DNA from: Escherichia coli
GTDB taxonomy: Bacteria > Pseudomonadota > Gammaproteobacteria > Enterobacterales > Enterobacteriaceae
DNA: 64,000 bases
Reading direction: 5' to 3' (one strand)
Assembly (NCBI RefSeq): GCF_003790525.1
Contig: NZ_CP033635.1
Part shown: positions 543 to 21,063 of the stretch, in pieces
How positions within the stretch are numbered: position 1 is the stretch's first letter
Layout: each line of letters begins with the position of its first letter
Program-made: the position numbers and the translations under genes
Notes under the pieces: generated by a model
Seen by the model: only the letters and a program-made list of their open reading frames with translations
Database searches by the model: none
What the model was told of the DNA's origin: nothing

Positions 543-614
543 AAATTAACCTTCATTTGATGCTGGATTGAACATATCAAAATCAGGCAATTACACAAAT
601 CTATGTACAGGCTC
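1..614 (-). mobile_element. IS256-family insertion sequence (IS1414-like), partial copy running off the window start
   Basis: 1..614 matches 47894..48507 (right end of the complete copy) with about one mismatch; identity stops exactly at 614. Confidence 0.85.
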
Positions 615-4686: not shown

Positions 4687-4688
4687 AC

Positions 4689-5585
4689 TTAAATCTCCGT
4701 CAAGCGTTGCGTTTCTGTGGTTCCAGTTGTAACTGGACGTTCATTGAGCGAAGGAAACTCCAGGGTATCTGCTAATGCTGCAAGATCGCTTTCAGCTAAA
4801 TCGGGCGACCGTTCTTCTACGGCTGGACTGATGCTCATGACAAAGCGCACCGTCTCTTCGATGCCAGTATGGCGCAGATAATGTTTGAGTTTTTGGGTCG
4901 GATACCAGTCGGACTCTCCCGACAGACTGCTGTCTTCGGCCAGAAAGCCTTCCTCCTGCAGCAGTTGTATCCAGCGCGTTGCCATTTCTGTTTGCGAGCG
5001 AATACTTGAGACACGCCCTACCTTTTCGTCGTGTATACGGGGAATACGTTCTTCCTGCACAAACCTGGCCGCCATAAGTAGGCCATCTACGGTATCGTCA
5101 CCCTCGGCCTTGCGCTGGGCAATCACCTGGTCGGCAACATTATTGAGCCTGGCTACCACCGAGGCGGCATTAATGGCGTTACTCTGACCGAACTCGACAC
5201 GAACGGTGTCTGGAGTTGGAAACAAATCAGCCAGCAACGCAATCAGAGTTAAGCCTGCAAACAGGCGCTGTTCTTTCCGTTCCTTACCCTGTTGCTCAGC
5301 CATTGTTTCAGGTAGCAAGCGTTTGTTCAGCCAACCCAAAGATGGGGAAAACGGACCTCGGCCATCTGCAGCCAGTAATACCCCGTAGGTCTCATGAATC
5401 CCAAGATACCGCAATTTCATACCTGTCGCGACGCCACGGATAATCTCTGTGAACAGGGCATCACCTTGCAGATCAAGAGCACGTTGAATCAGCTCATCCC
5501 CCATTTTATATCCCAGTGAATTCATAATTGCCTGCGTGGCAATCTCGGCGTAGCGTTTAGTTTGTTGATGCGCGTTGTCGTACAT
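4689..5585 (-). CDS. Middle subunit of the SMC-like operon (KITE/JetB/MksE-like by position and size)
   Basis: 298-aa ORF tightly packed (2-3 bp spacing) between the kleisin-like and SMC-like genes; no motif confirmed. Confidence 0.4.
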   Translation of the reverse strand: MYDNAHQQTKRYAEIATQAIMNSLGYKMGDELIQRALDLQGDALFTEIIRGVATGMKLRYLGIHETYGVLLAADGRGPFSPSLGWLNKRLLPETMAEQQGKERKEQRLFAGLTLIALLADLFPTPDTVRVEFGQSNAINAASVVARLNNVADQVIAQRKAEGDDTVDGLLMAARFVQEERIPRIHDEKVGRVSSIRSQTEMATRWIQLLQEEGFLAEDSSLSGESDWYPTQKLKHYLRHTGIEETVRFVMSISPAVEERSPDLAESDLAALADTLEFPSLNERPVTTGTTETQRLTEI

Positions 5586-5587
5586 AA

Positions 5588-7054
5588 CTACTCCTCAAAG
5601 GGGTATAAGGGAGCAACCGTTAACAGTTTGATATTGTTAGCCCGCCAGAGCGTTGTTTCGATAGCGCCGTCTATCTCCACTTCTATTGCGGGATCGCTGT
5701 TAGCTGCCAGGCTGCCAATATGGAGTAAACAAACCTGTTGCTCTTGTTCGGATAATTCTTCGCCCTCATAGGCGTCAAAAACATCTCTAAAGCTCACATG
5801 CCCCCAATTCTTCAATCGGTCACTAACCCAATCGCTGCATTTTTTAATGACAGATTCAGGGATACCTCGCAGGTTGGTTTCAATAGCTACAGGCTGATCG
5901 GTGAGGTCCTGTATCTCATGTGGAAGCGCCTGTTCAAATCTATCGAGATAAAGGTTCAGCAGCGCCTCAAGGTCAAACAGAATGTGCCGATCATCATCCT
6001 GTCTTCGGGGAGCCAACAGGCGTGCGGTGAGATCATCGATTTCCTTTTCGACAGTGTCGGGGGAATGAGACAGCAAGGGCTTGAGTGCACCTTTTTCCAG
6101 TGTTTCCCGAAAGAGGGTATTATCTCTGGGAATAATGAGTTTCAGACGAGCTCGCTCAAAATCTTTGTTAACATCAAGTAAGCAGTCTTGATAGCGCTGC
6201 GTAAAAGCGCAGACCTCAGCAAAAATCTCCTGTGCCCTACGTAGCTTATTTAATTTGTCGGGATTTATTTTCGAACTTCCTTCAACCAGCATTTCGGTAA
6301 TGGCCGACATTGAGTTCTGGATATGTTCCAAAACCTCTCGGGTTTTATCAAAGGAATCATTGAGTACGGGACGGATATCGTGTGCATAAGATGCACTCAA
6401 ATCACCAGACTGGGCGGCACGCACTTTCATCCGCATTCCAATCAGATATTGCTCCAGTTGCCGCTGTGTTGATTGGATCTGGTGTACTGCCTTGTCGATC
6501 TCTCCGCGACGGATGGTTTTAAGCGTGCGCCAGGCCAGAATCGCAGCGCGTTCTATCGGCGTTTCATCCAAGCGCAGGGTATAGAACAACATTCCTTCAT
6601 CAGTCAGCGACCAGAGAATATCATCTGAGCCGGATAGCTGGTCATAGCGTACCAGACGGACTATCTGCTCTTCGGAATGCGTTCGTTGCGAGAAATCATA
6701 ATAACGGAGGCGGAAAGGATCTTTGATCGCCGCAAAAATCTTGCTGGCCACTTGTGCGTAGTCGGGTTCTTCTTGTCCCGGATAGGCTTCATTGAGGTGC
6801 CCAACCAGACATAACTCCGCTTCCTTACGCGTCATTCCAGGCTGGCGCTCGCGGTCAGCATAATAAAGCATGGCGTCAAAGAGATACATGATTGCCGCCA
6901 GCGCATCAAGCTCAACACCATCGAACGGATTTCGCTGAAGGGCGCTATATATTGAATCCAGCGTCCGCACGACCAGTAAGGCGTGAGACTGAATAGACAG
7001 CTCACGACGTGCCATTGATTCATTACGAGCCTGCTCCAAAAACCCTAGCGACAT
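5588..7054 (-). CDS. First gene of the SMC-like operon (kleisin/JetA/MksF-like by position and size)
   Basis: 488-aa ORF; RBS GGGAG upstream of the ATG; operon order kleisin-KITE-SMC as in mukFEB/jetABC. Confidence 0.4.
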   Translation of the reverse strand: MSLGFLEQARNESMARRELSIQSHALLVVRTLDSIYSALQRNPFDGVELDALAAIMYLFDAMLYYADRERQPGMTRKEAELCLVGHLNEAYPGQEEPDYAQVASKIFAAIKDPFRLRYYDFSQRTHSEEQIVRLVRYDQLSGSDDILWSLTDEGMLFYTLRLDETPIERAAILAWRTLKTIRRGEIDKAVHQIQSTQRQLEQYLIGMRMKVRAAQSGDLSASYAHDIRPVLNDSFDKTREVLEHIQNSMSAITEMLVEGSSKINPDKLNKLRRAQEIFAEVCAFTQRYQDCLLDVNKDFERARLKLIIPRDNTLFRETLEKGALKPLLSHSPDTVEKEIDDLTARLLAPRRQDDDRHILFDLEALLNLYLDRFEQALPHEIQDLTDQPVAIETNLRGIPESVIKKCSDWVSDRLKNWGHVSFRDVFDAYEGEELSEQEQQVCLLHIGSLAANSDPAIEVEIDGAIETTLWRANNIKLLTVAPLYPFEE

Positions 7055-7099
7055 AACATTCTCCCTCTGAGACGGAAGCCACTATAGTACTCGCCCGCC

Positions 7100-7126
7100 A
7101 ATTAAGCAAAGAAACTTTGCTTAATT
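7100..7126. promoter_or_regulatory. Perfect 12-3-12 palindrome (AATTAAGCAAAG aaa CTTTGCTTAATT) in the divergent promoter region; candidate operator
   Basis: Read directly in the 175-bp AT-rich intergenic region between the divergently transcribed genes at 7054 and 7230. Confidence 0.5.
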
Positions 7127-7229
7127 TTTATTTATAGCAATGTTATTTGTTTTGATGTCATTCGCCTTCTATACTCAGTCGGTATATCAAACCGCAATTG
7201 ATTAACCTGCAAATAAGAATAAAACTGAT

Positions 7230-8123
7230 ATGTACTACTCAAAGTTTCTTGAGAAACACAAATCCCCCCTCAGCCACGCACAATGGTTGCGCTTGCGCTA
7301 TATTGAGCGCCAGCTACTGTGGGAACGAAAGGTCACTTCGCGCATGATTGCTGAAGAGTTTGGCGTCTCGGCGCAACAAGCTCGTACTGATGTAAGAACC
7401 TATATGGAGGTCGCTCCAGGCAATGCTATTGAGAAGGGGGCCGGCCGAAAAGGGTATTTCCCCAGTACGACGTTTACGCCTGTTTTGCTGGGAGACAACG
7501 ATCTGGTCTGGCGTACGACGGTAGAATTTCAACCGCCGCAAGCGGCCCACGCGCAGGAAATCCCGCTCATCCATCGCGCAGTGCATAGCCGCACGCTGGC
7601 AATTTTTTTGTCAGCAATCGAACAGAAAGGACAAGTAAAAGTGACTTATGCGTCAATGGAAAACCCGGAAGGCATATCTCGTACACTAAGCCCTACGGTA
7701 ATTATCACCGTTAACGGGCGTCAGCATGTGCGAGCCTATGACTGGGGAAGTTCGGCGTTTAAGGACTTTGTTTTGGCGCGATTTCTGGACTTGCCGGAAC
7801 TGATTGTTCCTGCACCCGCCCCGCCACGCAAAGATACCGCGTGGGAGGTCATAATCCCCGTGCGTTTTATAGCCAATCCAACACTAAACAAAGCGCAACA
7901 AGAGGTAATTAAGCGGGACTATTTACTTGAACCCTCTGAATTCAACATTCGTGCACCAATGATTTTTTATTTATGCCCTGAAAACAATCTGCCTAAAACA
8001 GATGATGAATATGCACAAGCTACTGACGCCAGCAGCCACGGCCCCTTTATCTACCCTGTTCTAGCTGTGCACGCCCAAACAGGGGAGCCTATTCATAAGT
8101 ACCGCCATGCAGGTGAGAGATAG
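7230..8123 (+). CDS. Putative HTH-WYL-type transcriptional regulator (BrxR/CapW-like architecture)
   Basis: 297 aa; N-terminal HTH-like segment (SRMIAEEFGVSAQQARTDVRTYME); central region resembling a WYL domain; divergent from the SMC-like operon. Confidence 0.45.
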   Translation: MYYSKFLEKHKSPLSHAQWLRLRYIERQLLWERKVTSRMIAEEFGVSAQQARTDVRTYMEVAPGNAIEKGAGRKGYFPSTTFTPVLLGDNDLVWRTTVEFQPPQAAHAQEIPLIHRAVHSRTLAIFLSAIEQKGQVKVTYASMENPEGISRTLSPTVIITVNGRQHVRAYDWGSSAFKDFVLARFLDLPELIVPAPAPPRKDTAWEVIIPVRFIANPTLNKAQQEVIKRDYLLEPSEFNIRAPMIFYLCPENNLPKTDDEYAQATDASSHGPFIYPVLAVHAQTGEPIHKYRHAGER

Positions 8124-8594: not shown

Positions 8595-9500
8595 TTACAA
8601 TACCAGTCCAACCCTCAGCTTACTGCAATGCCCATCAAGAGGGATGGTCCACATTGACGTATCAAAATCGCTCTCTGACCAGCGAGCAAAACGCAGCTCA
8701 CTGGATCGAATAAAGATAAGCAGAGTGAGTTCTGTCGCCCAGCGGGTTAGCGGCCTGCCGGTATAGCTGTCTATTTTCTCAAGTAACTCAGGGATGCGCT
8801 TTAACTCCAGCGCCGGACGATGCTGTCGATTACTGGAAGCAACCGCCCCCGCCATCTCCTGCGCCGGATTGTAATGAATTAACCCGCTTTGCACTGCATA
8901 ACGCATGATGGCCGTGGTGCGCTGTTGAAGGCGGGAAGCCACTTCAAAACGTCCAGATTTCTCCACGGCTTTAATGGGAATTAACAGATCGCGGGTGCCC
9001 AGTTCAGCAATATTGCGAGCACCAATTGTTGGGAAGATATTGTCCTCCAGGCTCTTTTTTCCACGATTAGCATGATCTTCCGACCATTTTTGGTTTGTCA
9101 CGAGCCACTCTCTGGCAACCTTCTCGAAAGTAATAATCTCTTTCGCCTGCTCTTCTTTCACAGCACGTTTATGCTCACGAGGATCGATACCAGCAGCGAC
9201 CAGCTTTCTGGCCTCTTCCCTTTTCTTCCGCGCATCCGCCAGCGAAACATCCGGGTAAACGCCGAACGCCATCAAATGTTGTTTACCACCAAAACGGAAA
9301 CGAAATCACCAATACTTTGAACCGCCAGGTTTTACAAGTAAAGACATGCCGTCGCCGTCAACAAGTGAATACTCTTTCTCCTCTGACTTCACAGAACGAA
9401 CTTTAGTATCCGTTAGGGCAATAATGGTCTTCCTTCCATTGGTATCTCGTGAGTATACAAGCAATATCGAATCGGCAAATATACTCATAAGTATACTCAC
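8595..9500 (-). pseudogene. P4-type tyrosine integrase, frameshifted and lacking the catalytic C-terminal domain
   Basis: ORFs 9306..9500 and 8595..9275 together align with the N-terminal ~260 aa of the intact integrase at 19562..20827 (LTDTKVRSVK, FGVYPDVSLADAR, IMRYAVQ, SSELRFARW); ends just after WTIP. Confidence 0.85.
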
Positions 9501-9622: not shown

Positions 9623-9641
9623 TGGTGCGAAGGCCGGACTC
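9623..9641 (-). other. tRNA 3'-end-like remnant; probable att direct repeat at the junction of the two islands
   Basis: TGGTGCGAAGGCCGGACTC resembles the leuX 3' end TGGTGCCGAAGGCCGGACTCGAACC (one indel, one mismatch). Confidence 0.5.
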
Positions 9642-9819
9642 AAACATCAAAATAAGTTAATGATAAAAAACAAATAATAAAACACAACAATGAAATATGC
9701 CCCCTTTTGTGCCCCCACTGTTTTTCTGACCAATCTATTTTCAGCCCATCAATAAATCGGAAAGTTAAATCATTTTTAATCAGTAAGTTTGGATCCGTAG
9801 CTCGGCTCCAAACCAGTGC

Positions 9820-10140
9820 ATCTTTTATCCACATAAAAAATTTTTTTTCGAAAGAACTGTTCACACTGTTCACCTTTCTGTTTTCTCCTTTTATTTCATA
9901 GTGATAGGTGGTGAATAATGGGTGAAGGGTGAACATTCGATTCTTCACCTCCGGCATTCTGCCGGTGTGACTTGTGCAGGGGATTAATTTCCCGTGCTGA
10001 AATCACACCGGAAGAAAAAAGTTTTTTTTGATTTGATTGTTCACACTGTTCACCTTTCGTTTTTCTCTTTTAATTTCAGTGTGATAACGGGTGAATATAC
10101 GGTGAAGGGTGAACAGTGGATTGTTCACCTTCGGGGAATT
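9820..10140. repeat. P4 crr-like region: two tandem ~120-bp direct repeats carrying TGTTCACC/GGTGAACA octamers
   Basis: TGTTCACACTGTTCACC at 9858..9874 and 10037..10054; GGTGAAGGGTGAACA in both units; lies just past the 3' end of the alpha gene. Confidence 0.7.
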
Positions 10141-10179
10141 CAGGGATAAAAAAAGACCGGCAGATGCCGGTCAGGTGGG

Positions 10180-12513
10180 TCAGGCTGTTGCAGGGTCGTC
10201 ACATTTTGGCAGCCAGTCGCCGTAGCTTTCCTCTTTCAGCGTCAGGTTGGTCTGTATCCCCTGTTTGGTATGGCGCTTCTCGTAATTCAGTCCGTATTCC
10301 TTCAGCATCACCGGCAGCCCCAGCCCGAACATTTTCAGACTGAGTACATTCCGGTAGCCGTTTGCCTCCATGTAGGCCAGATAGGCGTGATAGAGGTATT
10401 TACGGTAATTGCGCGGGATGATACTGGCGTTCCCCATATACATGCCGCTGGTCTGCGGCAGGGTTTCCAGATAGCCGATAAAATCAAACGTCGGGTCGGC
10501 ATCCCGTTTGATGTTCAGTGCCTCGTCTGAGTTCTGCTGGGACTGAAGCAGTGACCGGGCGAGCATCGGGTCGCTGAACTTCTGCATCAGGTGACGCACG
10601 ATGACCGCCAGCTCGCGGGTGATTTTGTCCTTAAGCTGCGGGTCGCGCTCCTGCGGGGCTATCTGTTCCGGGAAGTGAATAATCACCCGCCGGCGTGACA
10701 CGCCGCCGCTGCGGTCGGTGAAGCGCATCGGGTTATTGTTCACGGCCAGAATTACCGCCGGGATATGCGTGGAGTATGCATCCCGGTATTTCGGGTCAAC
10801 GGACACCGCATCGCCGCCGGTGATGGCCTTGAGTCCGGCACCGTCGCCGCTCCATTTTTCCTGGTCCGGCAGGCGTATCAGTGAGAAGCCAGTTAACGCG
10901 GCACGTTCACGCGGGGATTCCAGCGTCTCGATGGTGGCCGACGTGGCGTTATCCTCCCCGGCCAGCAGGGTGGCTATTTCGGCCATGATACTTTTGCCGC
11001 TGCCGCCGGGACCGGTCACCTCCAGAAAGAGCTGCCAGTCGTAGCGGTTTGCCAGCACCATAAACAGTGCGGCCAGAATCACGTCGCGTTTTTCCGCACG
11101 GCCACCGGCGGCACGGTCAAGCCAGCACCAGAACGCGGGGGCGTGGGTCTCCAGCGTTTCACCGTCCACCGGCGGGGTGAAATCCACATCGCACAGGGTG
11201 CGCATCCAGTGTGACGGACTGTGCGGGTGGAACGTGCCGTTCTGCGTGTCGAGCACGCCGTTACGAAAGCCAATCAGGCGGCGGGAGGGGGCTTCCTGCT
11301 GCGGAATAATCAGCTTCAGGGTGTCCACCACGGAGGCCACCTTCCCGGAGGAGAACGGCGCGCGCAGACGCTGAAACAGCCCGGCCACATCCCGGGCAAA
11401 GTCCTGTGGTGGCAGCACCTTCCAGACACCATTTTCATAACGGGACAGAAGCTGGCCGTTGGCATCGACCGCGAGCGCCTCGCCGTAATGCTCATAGATA
11501 CGCATGGCCTTTTCGCTGGTACTCATGGCGGAAAACTCCGCTTCACTCATGGTGTCGAACGGGCTTTCAGCCGGTGGCCGGATGGCATCGTAAATGGCCT
11601 TACGGGTGGCCTCCCCGCCGTACTGCGTGAAGGCATCATTCCAGTCACCGAAGACCGGTGGCAGGGCAACAACACCTTCACACGCATCTGCGGCTGCGGC
11701 GGCTTTTTTCTGGCCATCACCGCTGAGGTCACGGTCAGCGGCAAGGACAATCTGACAGGCGGGGTGCTTCTGCCGGGCAAGGCTGGCCAGAGAAAGGAGG
11801 TTCACGGAAGAAAGCGCCACCATCACCGTTTCACCGGTCAGGTGATGCACGGTAAGTGCGGTCGCGTATCCCTCCGCTATCCACAGACGTTTTCCGGCCT
11901 GATTCTGTCCTTCAAGGATGTGACAGGTGCCCCTGACCTGTCCGCCTTTCAGGGTGCGCTTACGGCCGTCAGCACTGATTAACTGAAGGTTAACCAGTTC
12001 GCCGCTGTCGTCATACAGTGGCACCACAAGGTCACCGGCGCGCCAGCTCACGCCACCGGCTCTGTGTGTGCCGGTCAGCATCCGGCATTCCCGGCCGGGA
12101 AAGCCCTTGCGGGTCAGGTAGGCGTTACCGGTTCCGGGACGGGTTTTCGCCATCAGGGTTTGTGCCAGTGCGGCGGCGTTCTTCCGGGCAGCGTCTGTTT
12201 CAGCACCGGCGGCAGCCGTCACTGCCGGGTCAGCCGGGGGCAGGCTGCCGGTCACGGCAGCCACCTTTGTGGCCGCGTCGGACGGGGAGACACCAAACAC
12301 CTTTTCAACCAGTTTCAGGCCGTCACCGGCACCACACTGATTGCAGTACCAGGTGCCGCGCCCCTCCCTGTCATCAAAACGGAAGCGGTCACTCCCGCCA
12401 CAGACCGGACAGGGCTGATGACGGTTCTTCAGCACCTGAATCCCCAGCGCCGGGAGAATACGCGGCCAGTGGCCGAGCGCATGGCTGACGGTGGCGGTTA
12501 CGTTCATTTTCAT
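10180..12513 (-). CDS. P4 alpha-type primase-helicase
   Basis: 777 aa (the length I recall for P4 alpha); N-terminal zinc-binding CPVCGG...CNQCG; P-loop GPGGSGKS. Confidence 0.9.
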   Translation of the reverse strand: MKMNVTATVSHALGHWPRILPALGIQVLKNRHQPCPVCGGSDRFRFDDREGRGTWYCNQCGAGDGLKLVEKVFGVSPSDAATKVAAVTGSLPPADPAVTAAAGAETDAARKNAAALAQTLMAKTRPGTGNAYLTRKGFPGRECRMLTGTHRAGGVSWRAGDLVVPLYDDSGELVNLQLISADGRKRTLKGGQVRGTCHILEGQNQAGKRLWIAEGYATALTVHHLTGETVMVALSSVNLLSLASLARQKHPACQIVLAADRDLSGDGQKKAAAAADACEGVVALPPVFGDWNDAFTQYGGEATRKAIYDAIRPPAESPFDTMSEAEFSAMSTSEKAMRIYEHYGEALAVDANGQLLSRYENGVWKVLPPQDFARDVAGLFQRLRAPFSSGKVASVVDTLKLIIPQQEAPSRRLIGFRNGVLDTQNGTFHPHSPSHWMRTLCDVDFTPPVDGETLETHAPAFWCWLDRAAGGRAEKRDVILAALFMVLANRYDWQLFLEVTGPGGSGKSIMAEIATLLAGEDNATSATIETLESPRERAALTGFSLIRLPDQEKWSGDGAGLKAITGGDAVSVDPKYRDAYSTHIPAVILAVNNNPMRFTDRSGGVSRRRVIIHFPEQIAPQERDPQLKDKITRELAVIVRHLMQKFSDPMLARSLLQSQQNSDEALNIKRDADPTFDFIGYLETLPQTSGMYMGNASIIPRNYRKYLYHAYLAYMEANGYRNVLSLKMFGLGLPVMLKEYGLNYEKRHTKQGIQTNLTLKEESYGDWLPKCDDPATA

Positions 12514-12527
12514 GGTGTTGTTCTCCT

Positions 12528-12848
12528 TCAGTGCAGTACCGGCGCTTTTATGTGACGGGCACAGAGTTCATCCATCACAACCAGCCCGAGAAAGGACAGC
12601 GACGGCGCGGCCTTCAGGGGGCCGGATTCCATTAAATCTTCCAGCAGGGCACAGGCTATCTGACGCCCTTTTTCCTCACCGTGCTGGCGCAGATAAAAGC
12701 CTTCCAGCTCAGCGGCGATGGCCGCCTCCAGTGACTCAAGGGTGAGATGCGGGTAGCGGTGCTGACGTTCGCACACGGTCAGCCAGGCACAGGCGACAGC
12801 GCGACGGTAAAGGGCAGCGCGTAAGACGGGCGGTAAGGGTGTTTTCAT
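12528..12848 (-). CDS. Hypothetical protein, P4-like accessory ORF
   Basis: 106-aa ORF immediately upstream of alpha on the same strand. Confidence 0.55.
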
Positions 12849-12983
12849 TTGTTTTCCTCCCTGTGACAGATGACTGCATTCCGTGCCGGTTGCATTAACT
12901 GATAAGGCATATCTGCGTCTCCTGAAGACGTGCGTATCCCTGCGCGAATACGCACATTTAATTTTTCGGGTGTCGTTTTTTAA

Positions 12984-13439
12984 TTACAGATAATTGCGGT
13001 AACTGTTATCCGGGGTGATTTCCGGGTCAGGCTCCGTGCGGGGAATTTCCCGCCATTCCCGCGCCACCGGTGCCGCCCGGCTGACCGGAACAGTGTCCTG
13101 CGGGTAAATATCCAGATATTTCTCCCGCCATTTCTGTAATTCCGGGTCTCCGGCCATTTCTTTCAGTACCGCATGCCGGTTTACGGGGCTGCGTTTGAAC
13201 AGGTCAGGACGGTCACAGGTAAATTCCCGCAGAAAACGCCCCAGCGGGATGTCTGTGGTGCGCCCGTCGGCGAGGATACGCACAAGGATACTGAATTTAC
13301 GGCGGTACGGGTTCCAGACAATGTCCGGGCAGCGGTACGGCATTTCCCACGGAATACCGTCTTCCAGAATGCCGACCACGGCCACATCGGGAAAACCGGC
13401 AGAACGGTAAATCTCACCGGGCTGGGGAAAATCAAACAT
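12984..13439 (-). CDS. Hypothetical protein, P4-like accessory ORF
   Basis: 151-aa ORF in the same operon orientation. Confidence 0.55.
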   Translation of the reverse strand: MFDFPQPGEIYRSAGFPDVAVVGILEDGIPWEMPYRCPDIVWNPYRRKFSILVRILADGRTTDIPLGRFLREFTCDRPDLFKRSPVNRHAVLKEMAGDPELQKWREKYLDIYPQDTVPVSRAAPVAREWREIPRTEPDPEITPDNSYRNYL

Positions 13440-13800
13440 GCGTCCTGTCTCCCCGGTCTTTCTGCTGGGCGAGAAAATCGCGGCACAGGCCTTTGGCTTT
13501 CAGCTCATTCAGCACAAAATCAATATCTTCATTCAGGTAGCTGAAAATATGCGGAATGTAGAGCTGATGCAGGCCGGAGAGTTCACGGTGAATCAAATCA
13601 CCCCCAACAAACTGGGATACGGCGCTGGCGCGGTTGAGCTTATGGTAAGCCTCAATGCTGAGGTGTTCACGGGCGTCATGACGCGCTGAGACGGTCTGAG
13701 GGGCTTTTTTATTACGCACGGGACACCTCCACCACCGGCAGACGGGCAGCAAGGGAGAGCACATAGTCACGGACAAGGGAACGGCGGGCGCTGCGTTCAT
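13432..13800 (-). CDS. Hypothetical small protein in the position of P4 epsilon; start uncertain
   Basis: ORF 13432..13959 with internal ATG candidates at 13800 and 13764; overlaps another frame (13712..14302). Confidence 0.3.
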
Positions 13801-14298
13801 CACCGGCGACGGTGCGAAGCATGCAGATACGGGGATGACGGTCTGCGCGACGGACAGCCGCAAACACAAAGACAAATTCAGGGTGTGAGGGGGTAAGGGT
13901 TGTAGCCATAAGGCAGCCTCCTTCGAGTAGCAAATAACTGCTATCGCCGGAGTTCTCACGCTCGATGGCGATAGCCCAGACGGGGGTGAGAATACCGGCC
14001 TCGAAGAATACCGGCCAGCCCGGAGGCTGCCCCGCCTGAGCTACCATTGACTCAGTGGCATAACATGCGATTGCGAACAGGATAATACCTGCACGGCAAA
14101 CCACACGCCACACCATAATCTGGCGCTCTGTGGCGTTGATTGCGACACAAAAAAAGACGCATGGCGCGTCATATGTCGCCTTCGAGTTACACGGGTTCTC
14201 ACGCCCGGCTGCCGATTTTGCGGCAACGGAAAGACTATATCCGCAAATGCCGGAAAAAGGCAAGCCAGAAAAAGGGAGTTTTTGCAGAGCGGGCATCA

Positions 14299-14565
14299 TC
14301 ATGCGTCATACCCCCGTTTGCGTCCGGCAATGCGGCCGGCCATCCATGCGGTGACTTCAGAGTGCAGCCAGGCCACATTTTTACCGCCAAGACTCACCTG
14401 CGGCGGAAATTCCCCCTTACGGATGAGTTCGTAGATGGTCGAGCGTGACAGGCCGCACAGGTGCATCACTTCCGGAAGACGCAAAAAACGCTCCTGTGTG
14501 ATGTCCGGCTGCGGCATCAGTGGCGTCACAGGGGCGGGAGACGGGGAAGAAAAAACAGCTTGCAT
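14299..14565 (-). CDS. AlpA-family phage transcriptional regulator / excisionase-like protein
   Basis: 88 aa; HTH segment [27 protein letters not shown] typical of the AlpA family. Confidence 0.75.
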
Positions 14566-14844
14566 CGGGCTACCTCGTTAATGTCCATACAGCACCGGAT
14601 AAGTCTGTCCGGCTTCGGGTAGCGCTTTATTTTGTGAATATTTTCAGCAGACGCAACAGGGGGGATTTGTTCCGGCAGCCTTACAATGCTTGTGTGTTTT
14701 TTGTTCATCTCCACTTAAAGTCATTTAAAGCCACTTAAAGCAATTCGTAATTTTTATAGTGAAATACAAATCGTTTTTTCTTATTCATTCCCGGCGAATT
14801 AATAAAAACAAACAGTAGTAAACAGCACAAAAAGCCCATCAACG

Positions 14845-14950
14845 GGTGAACAGTGGTGAACAGACGGTGAACAGTCATTACTGCGATTGTTCACCCTTTA
14901 ACTTACTGTATTACTTATCTTTTTTCTTATGGCGAACAGAGGTGAACAGT
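14845..14950. repeat. P4 ori-like iteron cluster (at least 5 GGTGAACA/TGTTCACC octamers)
   Basis: GGTGAACAGTGGTGAACAGACGGTGAACAG, then TGTTCACCC, then GCGAACAGAGGTGAACAG; about 4.7 kb from the crr-like repeats. Confidence 0.65.
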
Positions 14951-15117
14951 AAAATATAAAAAAACAAACAGTAAGACGGTTTTTCCTGCGACCTTTTCCT
15001 GGCTTGCCGGTGTGAGGATGAGTCTCCTGTGTCAGGGCTGGCACATCTGCAATGCGTCGTGTTGTTGTCCGGTGTACGTCACAATTTTCTTAACCTGAAG
15101 TGACGAGGAGCCGGAAA

Positions 15118-15852
15118 ATGTCTGACAACACCATCCCTGAATATCTGCAACCCGCGCTGGCACAACTGGAAAAGGCCAGAGCCGCCCATCTTGAGAACGC
15201 CCGCCTGATGGATGAGACCGTCACGGCCATTGAACGGGCAGAGCAGGAAAAAAATGCGCTGGCGCAGGCCGACGGAAACGACGCTGACGACTGGCGCACG
15301 GCCTTTCGTGCAGCCGGTGGTGTCCTGAGCGACGAGCTGAAACAGCGCCACATTGAGCGCGTGGCACGCCGGGAGCTGGTACAGGAATATGACAATCTGG
15401 CCGTGGTGCTGAATTTTGAACGCGAACGCCTGAAAGGGGCGTGTGACAGCACGGCCACCGCCTACCGGAAGGCACATCATCACCTGCTGAGTCTGTATGC
15501 AGAGCATGAGCTGGAACACGCCCTGAATGAAACCTGTGAGGCGCTTGTCCGGGCAATGCATCTGAGCATTCTGGTACAGGAAAATCCGCTCGCCAACACC
15601 ACCGGGCATCAGGGCTACGTCGCACCCGATAAAGCTGTCATGCAGCAGGTGAAATCATCGCTGGAACAGAAAATAAAACAGATGCAAATCAGCCTCACCG
15701 GCGAGCCGGTTCTCCGGCTGACCGGACTGTCAGCGGCAACACTCCCGCACATGGATTATGAGGTGGCAGGCACACCGGCACAGCGCAAGGTGTGGCAGGA
15801 CAAAATAGACCAGCAGGGAGCAGTGCTTAAGGCCAGAGGACTGCTGTCATGA
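15118..15852 (+). CDS. sid: P4 Sid-like capsid size-determination protein
   Basis: 244 aa from the ATG at 15118 (RBS GAGGAG); followed by delta and psu in P4 order. Confidence 0.7.
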   Translation: MSDNTIPEYLQPALAQLEKARAAHLENARLMDETVTAIERAEQEKNALAQADGNDADDWRTAFRAAGGVLSDELKQRHIERVARRELVQEYDNLAVVLNFERERLKGACDSTATAYRKAHHHLLSLYAEHELEHALNETCEALVRAMHLSILVQENPLANTTGHQGYVAPDKAVMQQVKSSLEQKIKQMQISLTGEPVLRLTGLSAATLPHMDYEVAGTPAQRKVWQDKIDQQGAVLKARGLLS

Positions 15853-16349
15853 TTTACTGCCCGTCGTGTGGACATGTTGCTCACACCCGTCGCGCACATT
15901 TCATGGACGATGGCACCAAGATAATGATTGCACAGTGCCGGAATATTTATTGCTCTGCGACATTTGAAGCGAGTGAAAGCTTTTTCTCTGACAGTAAAGA
16001 TTCAGGAATGGAATACATTTCAGGCAAACAGAGATACCGCGATTCACTGACGTCAGCCTCCGGCAGTATGAAACGCCCGAAAAGAATGCTTGTTACCGGA
16101 TATTGTTGTCGGAGATGTAAAGGCCTTGCACTGTCAAGAACATCGCGGCGTCTGTCTCAGGAAGTCACCGAGCGTTTTTATGTGTGCACGGATCCGGGCT
16201 GTGGTCTGGTGTTTAAAACGCTTCAGACCATCAACCGCTTCATTGTCCGCCCGGTCACACCGGACGAACTGGCAGAAAGCCTGCATGAAAAACAGGAACT
16301 GCCGCCAGTACGGTTAAAAACACAATCATATTCGCTGCGTCTGGAATGA
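15849..16349 (+). CDS. Ogr/Delta-family zinc-finger late-gene activator (tandem Ogr-like repeats)
   Basis: 166 aa; two CxxC...C..C units (YCPSCGH...CRNIYC and CCRRCKG...CTDPGC); ATGA overlap with the sid stop. Confidence 0.8.
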   Translation: MIYCPSCGHVAHTRRAHFMDDGTKIMIAQCRNIYCSATFEASESFFSDSKDSGMEYISGKQRYRDSLTSASGSMKRPKRMLVTGYCCRRCKGLALSRTSRRLSQEVTERFYVCTDPGCGLVFKTLQTINRFIVRPVTPDELAESLHEKQELPPVRLKTQSYSLRLE

Positions 16350-16422
16350 GGGCTGCCGGTTAACACCGGCCGTCGCCGCACACCGTATTTTTATTCTTCA
16401 GCATGATGAGAAAGAGATAACG

Positions 16423-16995
16423 ATGGAAAGCACAGCCTTACAGCAGGCCTTTGACACCTGCCAGAATAACAAAGCAGCATGGCTGCAACGCAAAAATGAG
16501 CTGGCTGCGGCCGAACAGGAATATCTGCGGCTTCAGTCCGGGGAAGGCAGAAACGTCAGTCGCCTTGACGAATTACGCAATATTATCGAAGTCAGAAAAT
16601 GGCAGGTGAATCAGGCCGCCGGTCGTTATATTCGTTCGCATGAAGCCGTTCAGCACATCAGCATCCGCGACCGGCTGAATGATTTTATGCAGCAGCACGG
16701 CACAGCACTGGCGGCGGCACTGGCACCGGAGCTGATGGGCTACAGTGAGCTGACGGCCATTGCCCGAAACTGTGCCATACAGCGTGCCACAGATGCCCTG
16801 CGTGAAGCCCTTCTGTCCTGGCTTGCGAAGGGTGAAAAAATTAATTATTCCGCACAGGATAGCGACATTTTAACGACCATCGGATTCAGGCCTGACGTGG
16901 CTTCGGTGGATGACAGCCGTGAAAAATTCACCCCTGCGCAGAACATGATTTTTTCGCGTAAAAGTGCGCAACTGGCATCACGTCAGTCTGTGTAA
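16423..16995 (+). CDS. psu: P4 Psu-like polarity suppression protein
   Basis: 190 aa, position after delta; length matches P4 Psu as I recall. Confidence 0.7.
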   Translation: MESTALQQAFDTCQNNKAAWLQRKNELAAAEQEYLRLQSGEGRNVSRLDELRNIIEVRKWQVNQAAGRYIRSHEAVQHISIRDRLNDFMQQHGTALAAALAPELMGYSELTAIARNCAIQRATDALREALLSWLAKGEKINYSAQDSDILTTIGFRPDVASVDDSREKFTPAQNMIFSRKSAQLASRQSV

Positions 16996-17159
16996 AATTC
17001 CCCGAAAATCCGCCCGTTTTTACTGAAAAAAGCCATGCATCGATAAGGTGCATGGCTTTGCATGCGTTTCCCTGCCTCATTTTCTGCAAACCGCGCCATT
17101 CCCGGCGCGGTCTGAGCGTGTCAGTGAAACTGCATTAAAACCGCCCCGCAAAGCGGGCG

Positions 17160-17178
17160 GGCGAGGCGGGGAAAGCAC
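17160..17178. other. P2/P4-type cos cohesive-end site
   Basis: GGCGAGGCGGGGAAAGCAC read directly; matches the P2/P4 cos sequence as I recall; sits after psu as in P4. Confidence 0.6.
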
Positions 17179-17368
17179 TGCGCGCATGATATAAAAGAGT
17201 ATTAAGAATTTTACAGAAACAGCTAATACAGACGCTGAAGTAAAATCATTGAGACCATTCGTGATTTGATGCAAAAAATTGCACAACATAAGCTCCTATG
17301 GTTCATAGTAATACTATTAAACCTATCTTTTCGTTGGTATATTACCCATTTTGTAATGGAGAATTGAA

Positions 17369-19501
17369 ATGCTTTCTACTCAGGATATAAACGGTTTTTT
17401 TAATGCTGTTGACTCTCTCAAAAGGTTTAAACGAGCAGAAATAAGGGACAACAAAGATAAACCACTTATTGATTCACTTTACACAGATCTATTGCCAAAC
17501 AATCACGTCTTCAAAATGTGCTACGGGGAAAACACTACATTTTTAATTGGAAGAAAAGGCACAGGAAAATCCACAATAATTCTTAAACTTGAAAGTGAGT
17601 ACAGAAAAGAATCTTCATACCTCCCATGCTATATAGATACAAAAACAGTATTCGAAAGTGTTAGAGGTGAGTATCAAAAAATAGACTACCTAAAAGGGAA
17701 GATACCTGAAGAGCATCTAGAAAAATATTTAGTCGAGCGTGCATTCATTAAAAACATCTTGAAATCAATCGGTGACGAATTGAATATTCGAGCAGAAAGC
17801 ATATTCTCAAAACTAGCAGGGATTGTTAATGCAAGCAAAAAACAAGCGGTAAAAGCAAAAATAACAAAACTACTTTTAATGGTGGACAATAACCAAATAA
17901 TAAAAGAAATTGAAATACCCGTAATAACAGAAGTAAATACTAAACTTACTAAGGCGAACGAATCAGAAAATGGAACTACCCAAAACTATAACTCTGAGCT
18001 AACTGTAAAAATCGGAACATCACAACATGAAGGTGGTGGAAAAATAGGAGCGGTAAAAGGAATCACCTCAAGACAGAAAAACAATGACGCTTGGGAAAAG
18101 AGTTTCTCTACAGCCCTTCTAAAGGTTTTTCAAATCACATCAGTAATTGAAGAAATTAAAATCATATTAAGAGAGCTAGGAGTAAAAAAGCTTGTAATAT
18201 TTTTAGACGATTTCTCTGAAGTTGAAGAGAAGACGCTAAAAAACTTCGTCGATGTTGTACTTGCTCCGCTAAATAACTGGGCTAATGATTTCATTTGTTT
18301 TAAAGTCGCTGCCTACCCAAGTCGCATATATTATGGCGACATTGATGTTGGCAAAATAGATGTGGTAAATTTAGATTTTTATAATTTATATTCTAATTAT
18401 GATAAATCTACGATGGAATCCTTATCAGCTGACTTCACCAAGAGACTTTTAAATCAAAGGCTTAATCAGTTTTGCACATTGAAGTTTGAAGATTATTTTG
18501 ATACATCTTCAGCTACTCCAGAAGAGTACTATGATCTTATATTTAAAGTATCCATGAATGTCCCTAGAATTATAGGATACATTCTTTATTACTGCCATCA
18601 AACCAATGTATCTCTTGGCAGAAAAATAAATAAAGGCTCAATCGAGAAAGCAGCTCAGACTTATTATGAGCAAGTTGTATCTAAGTTTTTCGATATTGCC
18701 ACGCATAGTCTGATGTCTTTCAGTGAAAAAGTTTCTGAACTTCAGCAAAAAGAGATTCTAAATCTCTTCGTTCAGAAATTAAAAACGATTAAGCGACAAA
18801 TAATAACAAATGAACTAACTGGCACAATTTACAATAGAGACAGAACAAATCCTTATTGTAGTCATTTTTATTTTCAACCTAATCTTGAACATTTTCTGCG
18901 TACATTGGAGCTTAATTTCTTCATTACCAAATATAATGAATTAGTAAATAAAGACGGAAACAAGGTCTCGATATATGGAATAAATTATGGATTAGCTCGA
19001 AGTGAAAACCTCAAATGGGGAAAACCTGAAGGTAATCAGTTCCGTAGTTATTTCGTAGAAAGACCATTTGATTTCAACAAAGATATCGAAGATTTCTTAA
19101 GAGAATCGAAAAAAATCGTATGTCTTAATAGCTCTTGTGATAAAACCTATCCATATGAAGAACTTGCATTTCTTGAATATAATAAAATGAGATGTATTGA
19201 ATGCCAGTCGCCTGTTGAAGTAAGATCGTTTTCTGAAAGTATCAGTTCTGAAATATCTAAAATTGACAACGCTAAACTTTTACCAAAATTAGAATTAATG
19301 ATATTACATGAACTGAATAAGGCAGACGATCATCTCCTAGCTCGAGACATTGCTGAGGAACTAGACGCTTCATCACAATTAATTGCCAAACGGGCTGAAA
19401 AATTAGACAGAAAAGGTCTTGTTTTTAGAGATAAAAGTGATGCATTAATTAAGTATTCAATAACAAATAAAGCAGTAGAAGGTTATTTCTATGATGACTA
19501 A
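17369..19501 (+). CDS. Uncharacterised P-loop NTPase with C-terminal zinc ribbon and wHTH-like tail; sole cargo gene of the P4 cos-int slot; candidate anti-phage protein
   Basis: 710-aa ORF; RBS GGAGA 7 nt upstream; Walker A GRKGTGKST (res 61-69); Walker B-like LVIFLDDFSE (res 275-284); C-x4-C-x18-C-x2-C near res 585-610; terminal wHTH-like segment; visibly AT-rich versus flanking genes. Confidence 0.85.
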   Translation: MLSTQDINGFFNAVDSLKRFKRAEIRDNKDKPLIDSLYTDLLPNNHVFKMCYGENTTFLIGRKGTGKSTIILKLESEYRKESSYLPCYIDTKTVFESVRGEYQKIDYLKGKIPEEHLEKYLVERAFIKNILKSIGDELNIRAESIFSKLAGIVNASKKQAVKAKITKLLLMVDNNQIIKEIEIPVITEVNTKLTKANESENGTTQNYNSELTVKIGTSQHEGGGKIGAVKGITSRQKNNDAWEKSFSTALLKVFQITSVIEEIKIILRELGVKKLVIFLDDFSEVEEKTLKNFVDVVLAPLNNWANDFICFKVAAYPSRIYYGDIDVGKIDVVNLDFYNLYSNYDKSTMESLSADFTKRLLNQRLNQFCTLKFEDYFDTSSATPEEYYDLIFKVSMNVPRIIGYILYYCHQTNVSLGRKINKGSIEKAAQTYYEQVVSKFFDIATHSLMSFSEKVSELQQKEILNLFVQKLKTIKRQIITNELTGTIYNRDRTNPYCSHFYFQPNLEHFLRTLELNFFITKYNELVNKDGNKVSIYGINYGLARSENLKWGKPEGNQFRSYFVERPFDFNKDIEDFLRESKKIVCLNSSCDKTYPYEELAFLEYNKMRCIECQSPVEVRSFSESISSEISKIDNAKLLPKLELMILHELNKADDHLLARDIAEELDASSQLIAKRAEKLDRKGLVFRDKSDALIKYSITNKAVEGYFYDD

Positions 19502-19561: not shown

Positions 19562-20827
19562 TTAGATCCTAGCAAAATCATAGGCCGTAATATTTTGATA
19601 TCGATTAATATCTAGATAGTCAGCCCACCATTGCATCATCAAACGACGCTCTTCTAAATGCTCTGAAGTATGAATATAAGCTGCGCGTACATTGTTACGT
19701 TCTGAATGGCTCAATTGACGTTCTATCGCATCATCACTCCATAGTCCCGATTCCCCCAACGCCCCGCGTGCCATAGTCCTAAAACCATGGCCACATACTT
19801 CTGTTTTTGTGTCATATCCCATTACACGCAATGCATTGTTTACCGTATTTTCACTCATAACCTTAGTTGCGTCATGATCGCCCGGGAAAAGAAAGTCTCT
19901 ATCACCACTAATCTGCTTAAGCTGTTCTAACAATATAATCGCCTGTCGGCTAAGCGGAACTATATGCTCCTCTTTCATTTTCATGCCACGATACGAGTAA
20001 CGTACGCCTTTAATTTCTTCTCGTTTAGCAGGAATACGCCAAGTAGCGTTATCAAAATCAAATTCTTTCCAACGAGCAAAACGTAATTCACTTGAACGAA
20101 CAAAAGTTAGTAAAGAAAGCTCAACCGCAATTTTCGTCATCATACGCCCACGATATACATCAAGACGTGCCAAGAACTCATGGAAACGATGTGATGGTAG
20201 CGCCGGGTAGTGCCGCGTTTTCGCCGTAGATAACGCACCGGCCATATCAATTGCAGGATTTGAGTCTACATAATCGTTCTGAACAGCATAGCGCATAATA
20301 GCAGTGACACGTTGCTGAAGACGCTGCGCTACATCATGCTTACCACTGGCATCAACTTTTTTTATCGGTGCCAAAAGGTGACTAGTTTTAAGCTGTCGAA
20401 TATCAGACGAGCCAATATAGGGAAAGATATAAAGCTCTAGATAGCGAAGAACCCGTGCCCGATGTTCCTCACTCCAACGCTTATTGCTGGCATGCCATTC
20501 ACGAGCAATAGTTTCAAAATTATAAGCACCAGCATTAACTGCTTGGGCCTCTTTCTGTACTGCTTTTGGATCTATACCTTGCACCAGCAACTTTTTGGCT
20601 TCATCCCTTCTAGCTCTAGCTTCAGCAAGCGTCACAGTCGGCCAAACACCAAAAGCAAGACGATCCTCTTTTTTGTCGGAAGGTCGTCTATATTTCATAC
20701 GCCAATATTTAGAGCCTTTGACAGAAACCTCGAGGTACAAACCGCCACCATCGGCCATTTTATAGGTTTTATCTTTTGGCTTTGCGGTCTCGACCTGTCT
20801 GGCGTTGAGCTTCATTTGGGGGCACAT
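19562..20827 (-). CDS. int: P4-type tyrosine integrase, intact
   Basis: 421 aa; adjacent to the tRNA-Leu 3' end; conserved HGFRT motif and C-terminal catalytic region. Confidence 0.9.
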   Translation of the reverse strand: MCPQMKLNARQVETAKPKDKTYKMADGGGLYLEVSVKGSKYWRMKYRRPSDKKEDRLAFGVWPTVTLAEARARRDEAKKLLVQGIDPKAVQKEAQAVNAGAYNFETIAREWHASNKRWSEEHRARVLRYLELYIFPYIGSSDIRQLKTSHLLAPIKKVDASGKHDVAQRLQQRVTAIMRYAVQNDYVDSNPAIDMAGALSTAKTRHYPALPSHRFHEFLARLDVYRGRMMTKIAVELSLLTFVRSSELRFARWKEFDFDNATWRIPAKREEIKGVRYSYRGMKMKEEHIVPLSRQAIILLEQLKQISGDRDFLFPGDHDATKVMSENTVNNALRVMGYDTKTEVCGHGFRTMARGALGESGLWSDDAIERQLSHSERNNVRAAYIHTSEHLEERRLMMQWWADYLDINRYQNITAYDFARI

Positions 20828-20978: not shown

Positions 20979-21063
20979 TGGTGCCGAAGGCCGGACTCGA
21001 ACCGGCACGTATTTCTACGGTTGATTTTGAATCAACTGCGTCTACCGATTTCGCCACTTCGGC
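20979..21063 (-). tRNA. leuX: tRNA-Leu (anticodon CAA)
   Basis: 85-nt cloverleaf on the minus strand (GCCGAAGTGGCGAAATCGGTAGACGCAGTTGATTCAAAATCAACCGTAGAAATACGTGCCGGTTCGAGTCCGGCCTTCGGCACCA). Confidence 0.95.

Follow-up and report, generated by a model that had tools for sequence, protein, structure and literature searches.

A candidate immunity gene in the cargo slot of a P4-like satellite

In the window analysed here, a stretch of 64,000 nucleotides (nt) of Escherichia coli contig NZ_CP033635.1 (assembly GCF_003790525.1), a P4-like satellite integrated at leuX carries a single gene between its cos site and its integrase gene. The gene (here denoted the cargo gene) encodes a 710-amino-acid (aa) ATPase, and we propose that it is an autonomous immunity gene. 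From its context we put the probability of a defence role at roughly 0.6 to 0.7, because the gene sits in a hotspot, its relatives are found in mobile elements and beside restriction-modification (RM) genes, its composition is foreign, its distribution is broad but patchy, and, of eight unknown P4 loci picked at random in a 2026 preprint (Moura de Sousa et al.), six gave protection from phage. The target would most likely be phages, possibly also other invading DNA, and the output of the protein is probably nucleic-acid binding, not catalysis. That the gene acts in defence and does so through an ATP switch and DNA binding is a joint claim that we place slightly below even odds. As a candidate for a new defence family the gene is well supported. 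The slot comprises the following features.

17160..17178, plus strand: P2/P4 cos site, an exact match to GGCGAGGCGGGGAAAGCAC; left edge of the variable slot
17179..17368, plus strand: AT-rich leader of the cargo gene, read from the sequence; contains the GGAG ribosome-binding site
17369..19501, plus strand: cargo gene, 2133 nt, ATG start, 710 aa, AAA+-type ATPase with zinc ribbon and winged helix-turn-helix (wHTH); WP_042346724.1
19521..19550, no strand assigned: perfect 10-bp hairpin, AGCTCAACGC / GCGTTGAGCT, located between the stop codons of two convergent genes, the cargo gene and int
19562..20827, minus strand: P4-type tyrosine integrase (int); right edge of the variable slot

A first-pass annotation, made from the letters of the sequence, had described an AT-rich open reading frame (ORF) of 710 aa as the sole non-backbone gene between cos and int of a P4-like satellite, and this description held. 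The ORF begins with ATG and has a GC content of 0.31-0.34 (about 33%), compared with 0.50-0.66 in the backbone genes. The element has alpha, a sid-like gene, delta, psu and int in P4 order, together with cos, a C4 RNA and att repeats, and the only other ORFs of at least 50 aa in the cos-to-int interval lie antisense inside the gene. A GGAG Shine-Dalgarno sequence lies 8 nt 5' of the ATG. A consensus scan for sigma-70 promoters gave no excess over shuffled sequences, and no strong consensus was found in the leader. The hairpin is likely, to judge from its sequence, to be a bidirectional terminator of the cargo gene and int; a consensus scan for intrinsic terminators, compared with shuffles, made no call for the cargo gene and missed this hairpin because it has no T-run.

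The slot is variable and the cargo gene is rare in E. coli

Searching 5426 complete E. coli genomes, we found psu and cos (at least 80% coverage) in 1047 and the cargo gene in 8, so that more than 99% of the satellites with the same psu do not carry it. Megablast homology to other P4-like satellites stops at about 17185, some 7 nt past cos. Satellites whose psu is 97-98% identical hold other cargo in the slot, either a HAD hydrolase with a DprA-like gene or a DEAD helicase with a small hypothetical gene. On our reading, these cargoes would correspond to Hydrolase+TM and Helicase+DUF2290, two systems for which Rousset et al. 2022 provided validation. The cargo gene is thus placed as hotspot cargo is, between psu/cos and int, in a slot whose content differs among close satellites, and the variability claimed in the first-pass annotation was borne out.

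The E. coli copies always lie in the leuX P4-like satellite and are at least 99.9% identical in the eight genomes. Outside E. coli, a lone homologue lies on a different P4-like satellite in Yersinia enterocolitica. Five E. coli copies are intact and three are truncated by IS1 insertions or deletions. In two of the three IS1-cut copies the IS1 has deleted the entire satellite backbone and the N-terminal 330 residues, leaving a remnant fused to fimB; truncated examples are E. coli FAM21845 (locus L002, 8001-10049) and strain 162.2 (locus L003, 7288-9137). Rarity and truncation could suggest that the gene is neutral or decaying passenger DNA in E. coli. We consider this very unlikely, as intact copies from five unrelated strains have 100% identity over their 2133 nt, and the family is kept at full length with 48-75% identity across phyla and with invariant catalytic residues, which indicates strong purifying selection.

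The protein is not new to the literature on P4 hotspots. WP_042346724 has three entries in Table S1A of Rousset et al. 2022, each time as a single 'hypothetical' P4 locus, and it was not among the systems tested there. The gene had been called undescribed, which is right in that it is uncharacterised and wrong in that it has been seen before. The main text of the DefensePredictor paper has nothing that matches the cargo protein.

The cargo protein combines an ORC/Cdc6-like ATPase core with a zinc ribbon and a winged helix

We examined conservation in two alignments, a close set of 46 full-length homologues (mean column identity 65%) and a wider set of 55 sequences at 24-59% identity. The AlphaFold2 model of the 710-aa protein (predicted local distance difference test, pLDDT, 79.9; predicted template modelling score, pTM, 0.75) gives the domain order alpha/beta P-loop core, helical insert, helical lid, small alpha/beta domain, zinc ribbon and C-terminal winged helix.

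17549..17575, plus strand: Walker A GRKGTGKST (K67), residues 61-69; invariant in both sets
17708..18178, plus strand: helical, coiled-coil-like insert, residues 114-270, from the secondary structure and pLDDT of the AlphaFold2 model
18191..18220, plus strand: Walker B LVIFLDDFSE (D280, D281, E284), residues 275-284; D280, D281 and E284 invariant in both sets
18404..18808, plus strand: helical lid, residues 346-480, with an invariant N-x-P399-R400-x-x-G403 motif and R364
18824..19108, plus strand: orphan alpha/beta domain, residues 486-580; one of the best-conserved stretches (SHF, LELNFF, KYxE, NYG, RWG)
19121..19204, plus strand: Cys4 zinc ribbon C585-x4-C590-x18-C609-x2-C612; all four cysteines invariant in the close set
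19286..19486, plus strand: C-terminal wHTH of the MarR/Lrs14 type, residues 640-706

The anatomy agrees with what had been noticed from the sequence: the Walker A and Walker B-like motifs, the long insert and the Cys4 ribbon are all present, invariant or nearly so in the 46 homologues, and the terminal wHTH-like segment proved to be the MarR/Lrs14-type domain listed above. Residues invariant in the wider set are G61, G64, G66, K67, S68, D280, D281, S283, E284, Y316, P317, R364, R400, G403, C585 and C612, and C609 is conserved there to at least 90%. Invariance of catalytic and cysteine residues at 24-59% identity points to strict selection on the zinc site as well as on the capacity to bind and hydrolyse ATP. 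The lid motif and R364 may act as sensor-2 or GxP-like elements, an assignment made by position. R364 and R400 are invariant throughout both sets, and R319 of the YPxR motif only in the close homologues. The zinc ribbon gave weak matches to IBR half-RING domains.

Walker A and Walker B are separated by about 205 residues. In the model the insert of about 155 residues lies between strand 2 (84-90) and the Walker B strand (274-280), a position that matches the initiator-specific helical insert of ORC/Cdc6 proteins. It is enriched in I, K, E, L and N, gave weak coiled-coil matches in a PDB profile search and is, by its entropy profile, the most variable region of the protein, with a disordered and hypervariable tip at 198-233. 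The same profile shows the ATPase motifs and residues 501-540 as the most conserved regions. The protein has no transmembrane segment (the maximum KD19, in the insert, is 1.43) and profile searches found no effector domain, in keeping with the earlier statement that membrane and other effector motifs are lacking.

The strongly conserved domain at 486-580, perhaps together with the zinc ribbon, might be an unrecognised nuclease or other enzyme that the ATPase switches on. In its favour, S498, H499, E507, E514, N516, K521, E524, S534, Y536, N539 and R559 are invariant polar residues in the close homologues, where they fall in and around an invariant block (SHF...LELNFF..KY.E...NYG...RWG at 498-551), and the domain matches no known fold or family; modelled alone it has no structural or sequence relative. 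In the wider family, however, only L513, E514 (at least 90%) and G541 are conserved in the block, and the loss of H499 and K521 speaks against a fixed catalytic set. The order of strands and helices in the model, a-b-a-a-b-b, would fit the winged helix found after the lid of ORC, STAND and archaeal ATPases, and the stand-alone model is itself of low confidence (pLDDT 66). We therefore give a hidden catalytic effector little credence.

The cargo protein lies outside curated families

The first-pass guess of an Orc1/Cdc6-like or archaeal-ATPase-like protein proved right for the fold and failed for profile membership. The cargo protein has an AAA+ core with Walker A and Walker B and, after strand 2, a helical insert as in ORC/Cdc6-type AAA+ and Arch_ATPase (PF01637) proteins, here greatly enlarged; the query scored E 0.18 against Pfam ATPase_2 and did not reach the profile threshold. 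Among the 46 homologues ATPase_2 was the most frequent Pfam match (9 of 46 at E 1e-3 or lower), with ORC-CDC6-like matched by one (E 7e-4). The protein is thus kin to ORC/Cdc6 and archaeal ATPases at the fold level only and belongs to no curated family. It fell below the cut-off of all NCBIfam (2026) models. NF047389, 'P-loop ATPase, Sll1717 family', gave 37.1 bits (E 2e-9, residues 53-459) against a curated cut-off of 75; the Sll1717 family is a distant relative and the cargo protein is not a member.

Comparison with solved and described relatives brings out the same distance. Archaeal Walker-type AAA+ ATPases of the ATPase_2/Arch_ATPase group (PABY2304, PDB 2qen; SSO1545, PDB 2fna) are about 350 aa long and have neither the 155-aa helical insert nor the zinc ribbon nor the second wHTH of the cargo protein. 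Compared with Orc1/Cdc6 initiators, the insert is about ten times longer with a disordered tip, a zinc ribbon and a second wHTH are added, the gene is accessory and does not lie at an origin, and the match at the sequence level is confined to that one homologue of 46. A single-sequence search of the PDB returned nothing, and a profile search returned only the Lrs14 wHTH and coiled-coil noise.

RefSeq (2026) names WP_042346724.1 as a MarR-family/HTH regulator ('MarR family transcriptional regulator'). The Pfam MarR_2 match of the wHTH has an E value of 1.8e-4 and covers model positions 6-53 of 61. MarR regulators, about 150 aa in length, form dimers through helices that flank the wHTH, whereas the match here is a 67-residue wHTH core, 9% of a 710-aa protein with an N-terminal ATPase; the full MarR fold of wHTH plus dimerisation helices (about 140-160 aa) is absent. 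PHROGs gave only a weak regulator match. PADLOC-DB v2 (2023) matched nothing but the wHTH of regulators of the CARF/Csa3/CasR type, with E 2e-4 at best, and we dismissed these matches as domain-level. No recognisable effector domain was found in the PADLOC, NCBIfam, Pfam, PHROGs and PDB searches. The earlier failure to place the protein in a named defence family was thus upheld, as PADLOC matched the wHTH only and the NCBIfam and Pfam ATPase matches were below threshold.

Homologues are widespread and travel on unrelated mobile elements

A profile search of 1.84 billion representative proteins recovered 581 clusters at 50% identity (440 at E 1e-10 or lower). Essentially all family members are about 700 aa long and free of domain fusions. 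In 100,044 genomes, one per species, we found 190 loci (about 0.2%), spread over Proteobacteria, Bacteroidota, Cyanobacteria, Firmicutes, Actinobacteria, Verrucomicrobia, Planctomycetes, Acidobacteria, Nitrospirae, Chloroflexi and archaea. Sources of homologues include Yersinia, Cronobacter, Serratia, Vibrio cholerae, Shewanella, Aeromonas, Sphingobacterium, Polaribacter and Leptolyngbya. All-against-all clustering of the ORFs at 80 species-level loci revealed no conserved partner gene.

Homologues on other mobile elements are lone genes that stand at moron positions. Apart from P4-like satellites, they occur in a P2-like prophage, flanked by tail-fibre and tail genes, and in a siphovirus-like prophage, with terminase on one side and portal on the other. 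In V. cholerae a full 712-aa homologue lies at the end of KSF-1-like filamentous prophages; the 118-123-aa gene beside these copies looks like adjoining filamentous-phage DNA and not like a partner. Vibrio phage KSF1 itself (NC_006294, 6535-6873) has a 113-aa remnant only, with 71% identity to residues 10-122, annotated as ORF XII/XIII. On the 6-kb MOBP plasmid pRHBSTW-00012_3 of Enterobacter hormaechei (1901-4986) a 33%-identical homologue begins 4 nt before the rep stop codon; the cargo of this plasmid consists of the homologue and CcdAB. Some chromosomal homologues have no associated mobile element and lie beside DnaE, PurL or RM genes. In a Sphingobacterium locus (L011, 10231-13299) the homologue stands beside genes for a 5-hydroxymethyldeoxyuridine (5-hmdU) DNA kinase-like protein (HMUDK_hel), Nmad2 and thymidylate synthase, which form a DNA base hypermodification module, and the locus also has AAA_16 and AAA-ATPase_like genes.

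These contexts bear on the possibility that the protein is a regulator serving the mobile element, an ORC-like factor that would act ATP-dependently in transcription or replication to control lysogeny, induction, copy number or exploitation of the helper. The wHTH output domain, the ORC/Cdc6-like fold, the RefSeq name and the overlap with rep on the plasmid agree with such a role, and the archaeal virus SNJ2, with its regulator of Orc1/Cdc6 type, may be a precedent by analogy. Against it, one and the same conserved protein is found in elements with unrelated replication and regulatory circuits (P4-like, P2-like, inovirus, siphovirus, MOBP plasmid) and at chromosomal spots, and in P4-like satellites it occupies a dispensable, variable slot and is missing from nearly all satellites with the same psu. 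The resemblance to MarR is limited to the wHTH core and does not extend to the dimer fold. A regulatory role for the element is thus quite improbable.

Homologues are repeatedly coupled to type II restriction-modification genes

RM genes adjoin the homologue at about 9 of the 80 species-level loci and at 4 others; most copies, including that of E. coli, are solitary. The arrangement of the RM-linked loci suggests close coupling. In locus L022 (155-5234) a HinfI-type operon consists of C protein, methyltransferase (MTase), homologue and restriction endonuclease (REase, HinfI-like), with overlapping stops and starts. In DpnII-type and AlwI-type cassettes of Lachnospiraceae and Clostridia the REase lies from a 41-nt overlap to 70 nt upstream of the homologue, and in an archaeal metagenome-assembled genome (MAG) the homologue overlaps the REase by 4 nt. 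One REase neighbour matched Pfam DpnII at E 2e-111, and neighbours matched PADLOC REase_II at E 1e-98, 2e-155 and 1.5e-19. Dam- and CcrM-type MTases are among the immediate neighbours, and BglII RM and Mod/Res-like genes lie beside other homologues. Further direct neighbours are AbiGi (E 9e-47), a TIR-like protein and an Hhe/ProA-like helicase. Eight of the distant homologues linked to HinfI-, DpnII- or AlwI-type operons, with reading frames that overlap or nearly abut, are 30-43% identical and of the same architecture; they come from Firmicutes, the archaeal MAG and a metagenome contig.

Translational coupling of full-length homologues to type II RM in independent lineages (HinfI, DpnII and AlwI types and the archaeal MAG) raises the possibility that the protein is a companion or guard of RM. 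It would work together with a restriction system or back it up, and might sense either unmodified DNA or anti-restriction proteins that mimic DNA. The solitary copy in E. coli would in that case protect the restriction systems of its host or act alone. PrrC, an anticodon nuclease within a type I RM operon, fires once phage anti-restriction proteins disable the enzyme. PARIS, which occupies the same P4 slot (Rousset et al. 2022), is an NTPase-containing defence tied to restriction and triggered by the anti-restriction protein Ocr. Both may serve as precedents by analogy, although each has its own nuclease effector (the C-terminal domain of PrrC, the AriB TOPRIM of PARIS) and no sequence similarity to the cargo protein was detected. 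The small share of loci with adjacent RM genes argues against a guard function, and defence genes also cluster with RM for reasons other than mechanism. We regard a dedicated guard of RM as unlikely.

The cargo protein differs from described defence ATPases

The fold class of the cargo protein is already in use by RADAR, BREX and STAND defences. The top Foldseek match was RdrA of RADAR (PDB 8hra; E 6.3e-5, TM-score 0.24), likewise an ORC/STAND-like ATPase used in phage defence. The RdrB adenosine deaminase of RADAR is missing from this locus and from all homologue loci examined; PADLOC gave no RdrA match, and there is neither a second gene in the slot nor a conserved partner over the 80 loci. 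BrxC/DUF499 proteins of BREX and BREX-related systems resemble the cargo protein in domain logic, with an ORC/Cdc6-type AAA+ domain and, after it, two wHTHs on either side of an orphan alpha+beta domain (PMC12839542). They are 1200-1300 aa long and always accompanied by PglZ, PglX and other partners, whereas the cargo protein has no PADLOC BrxC match and no BREX genes nearby. The STAND/AVAST/NLR-like architecture, an NTPase with a C-terminal TPR, LRR or WD40 sensor and an N- or C-terminal effector, is not present in the cargo protein. Membership in the KAP group (Tmn, Reve) was not supported either, since PF07693 gave no match even at E 10, PADLOC Tmn gave none, and the insert has no hydrophobic segment.

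Reve (construct pFD425) is a single ATPase gene in the same P4 slot, also with no obvious effector; its authors report ORC as the top fold match and strong protection against Drexlerviridae (Moura de Sousa et al. 2026 preprint). Reve is 586 aa long, has a KAP-type GEWGVGKT P-loop and has neither zinc ribbon nor wHTH. The best blastp match between the two had an E value of 0.037 and the hhalign probability was 4.8%, indicating different families. Native 23-26-mers of the cargo gene are missing from the construct files of the preprint. Toga, a further P4 system of the preprint, is by its description SMC/Gao_Ppl-like, which sets it apart at the level of description.

A putative mechanism and points weighing against defence

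The defence phenotype, what triggers it, the assembly into oligomers and an effector step by DNA binding are all inferred, and they could be joined as follows. At rest the protein would be a nucleotide-bound closed monomer. An infection cue, which may be a protein of the phage, DNA of foreign origin, or an intermediate of replication or packaging, would be sensed by the hypervariable helical arm in the ATPase core, by the orphan alpha/beta domain, or by both. The cue would drive assembly of an ATPase oligomer, and this would clamp onto DNA with its inserts, zinc ribbons and C-terminal winged helices. The clamp would then stop the phage at replication, transcription or packaging, or arrest the cell.

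Several points weigh against a role in defence or against parts of this scheme. Defence without an enzymatic effector is unusual, and an ORC-like ATPase with a wHTH is just as typical an architecture among transcription regulators and replication initiators. The conserved domain 486-580 could conceal a catalytic site, which would make the absence of an effector a wrong conclusion. The overlap with rep on the Enterobacter plasmid could point to a replication role, and IS1 truncation of three of the eight E. coli copies indicates that loss is tolerated. Oligomerisation is putative, and conservation in the two alignments allows no confident assignment of an arginine finger. None of the PADLOC defence models matches the cargo protein, and a literature search for the family or the protein (Sll1717, WP_042346724, PF01637 with anti-phage) found no paper or experimental datum.

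If the gene is protective, it represents a defence family that current tools miss, as PADLOC 2023 and NCBIfam 2026 have no passing model and RefSeq gives it a MarR name. The P4 slot is a place where unknown genes, including new families, are already expected to be defences; two things lift this one above a routine candidate, namely that it has no recognisable effector domain and that its homologues are repeatedly found in translational coupling with type II REases. If our reading is true, the protein would be a test case for how an ATPase and DNA-binding modules alone can stop a virus, in a family that travels on satellites, three kinds of prophage and plasmids. With homologues of other lineages so tightly coupled to type II RM genes, one can ask directly if simple restriction systems have dedicated ATP-dependent helpers or guards. 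If the gene is not protective, a misleading annotation is corrected and an ORC-like regulator traded widely among mobile elements is brought to notice. A bolder proposal, and as a whole a doubtful one, is a new and widespread effector-less immune class in which an ORC/Cdc6-like switch neutralises invaders by ATP-dependent assembly on their DNA, with an ancestral or alternative role as guard or accessory of type II REases that might, for instance, sense DNA mimics directed against restriction or a failure of restriction. Such an ancestry would explain the translational coupling to DpnII-, AlwI- and HinfI-type endonucleases in bacteria and archaea.

The satellite and its surroundings

The satellite is about 11.4 kb long and bounded by a 14-nt att repeat, CGAAGGCCGGACTC, at 9628 and 20985. 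Its integrase gene abuts the tRNA gene that serves as integration site, and the att repeat is the 3' end of the tRNA.

9628..17159, no strand assigned: P4-like backbone, genes in P4 order and C4 RNA
10180-12513, minus strand: alpha primase-helicase
13964-14051, minus strand: C4 immunity RNA (Rfam)
15100-15852, plus strand: sid-like gene
15849-16349, plus strand: delta
16423-16995, plus strand: psu
20979..21063, minus strand: tRNA-Leu(caa), integration site

At 13964-14240 (minus strand) Rfam detected C4 antisense RNA (74 bits), isrK (67 bits) and the c4-a1b1 targets (50 bits), the RNA-based immunity region of P4; with all three detected, the satellite's own RNA immunity looks intact. An AT-rich ORF of 105 aa at 9640-9957 (minus strand) lies between the left att and alpha and has no PADLOC match; the satellite may thus have a second, small variable region here. 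FAM21845 has a gene annotated as hypothetical at the equivalent position.

A type III Wadjet system (601-8123 in the window) lies directly to the left of the satellite. Its JetD gene, if present, would be expected at or beyond the start of the window.

601-4686, minus strand: JetC3 (PADLOC 3077 bits)
4689-5585, minus strand: probably JetB, 298 aa
5588-7054, minus strand: JetA3 (PADLOC 1136 bits)
7230-8123, plus strand: divergent WYL-domain regulator

Between the Wadjet island and the left att, at 8595-9500 (minus strand), are remnants of a second P4-type integrase, two ORFs of 226 and 64 aa that are integrase N-terminal-like, which suggests tandem integration of two islands at leuX. Strain C311 instead has a type I HsdR in this flank.

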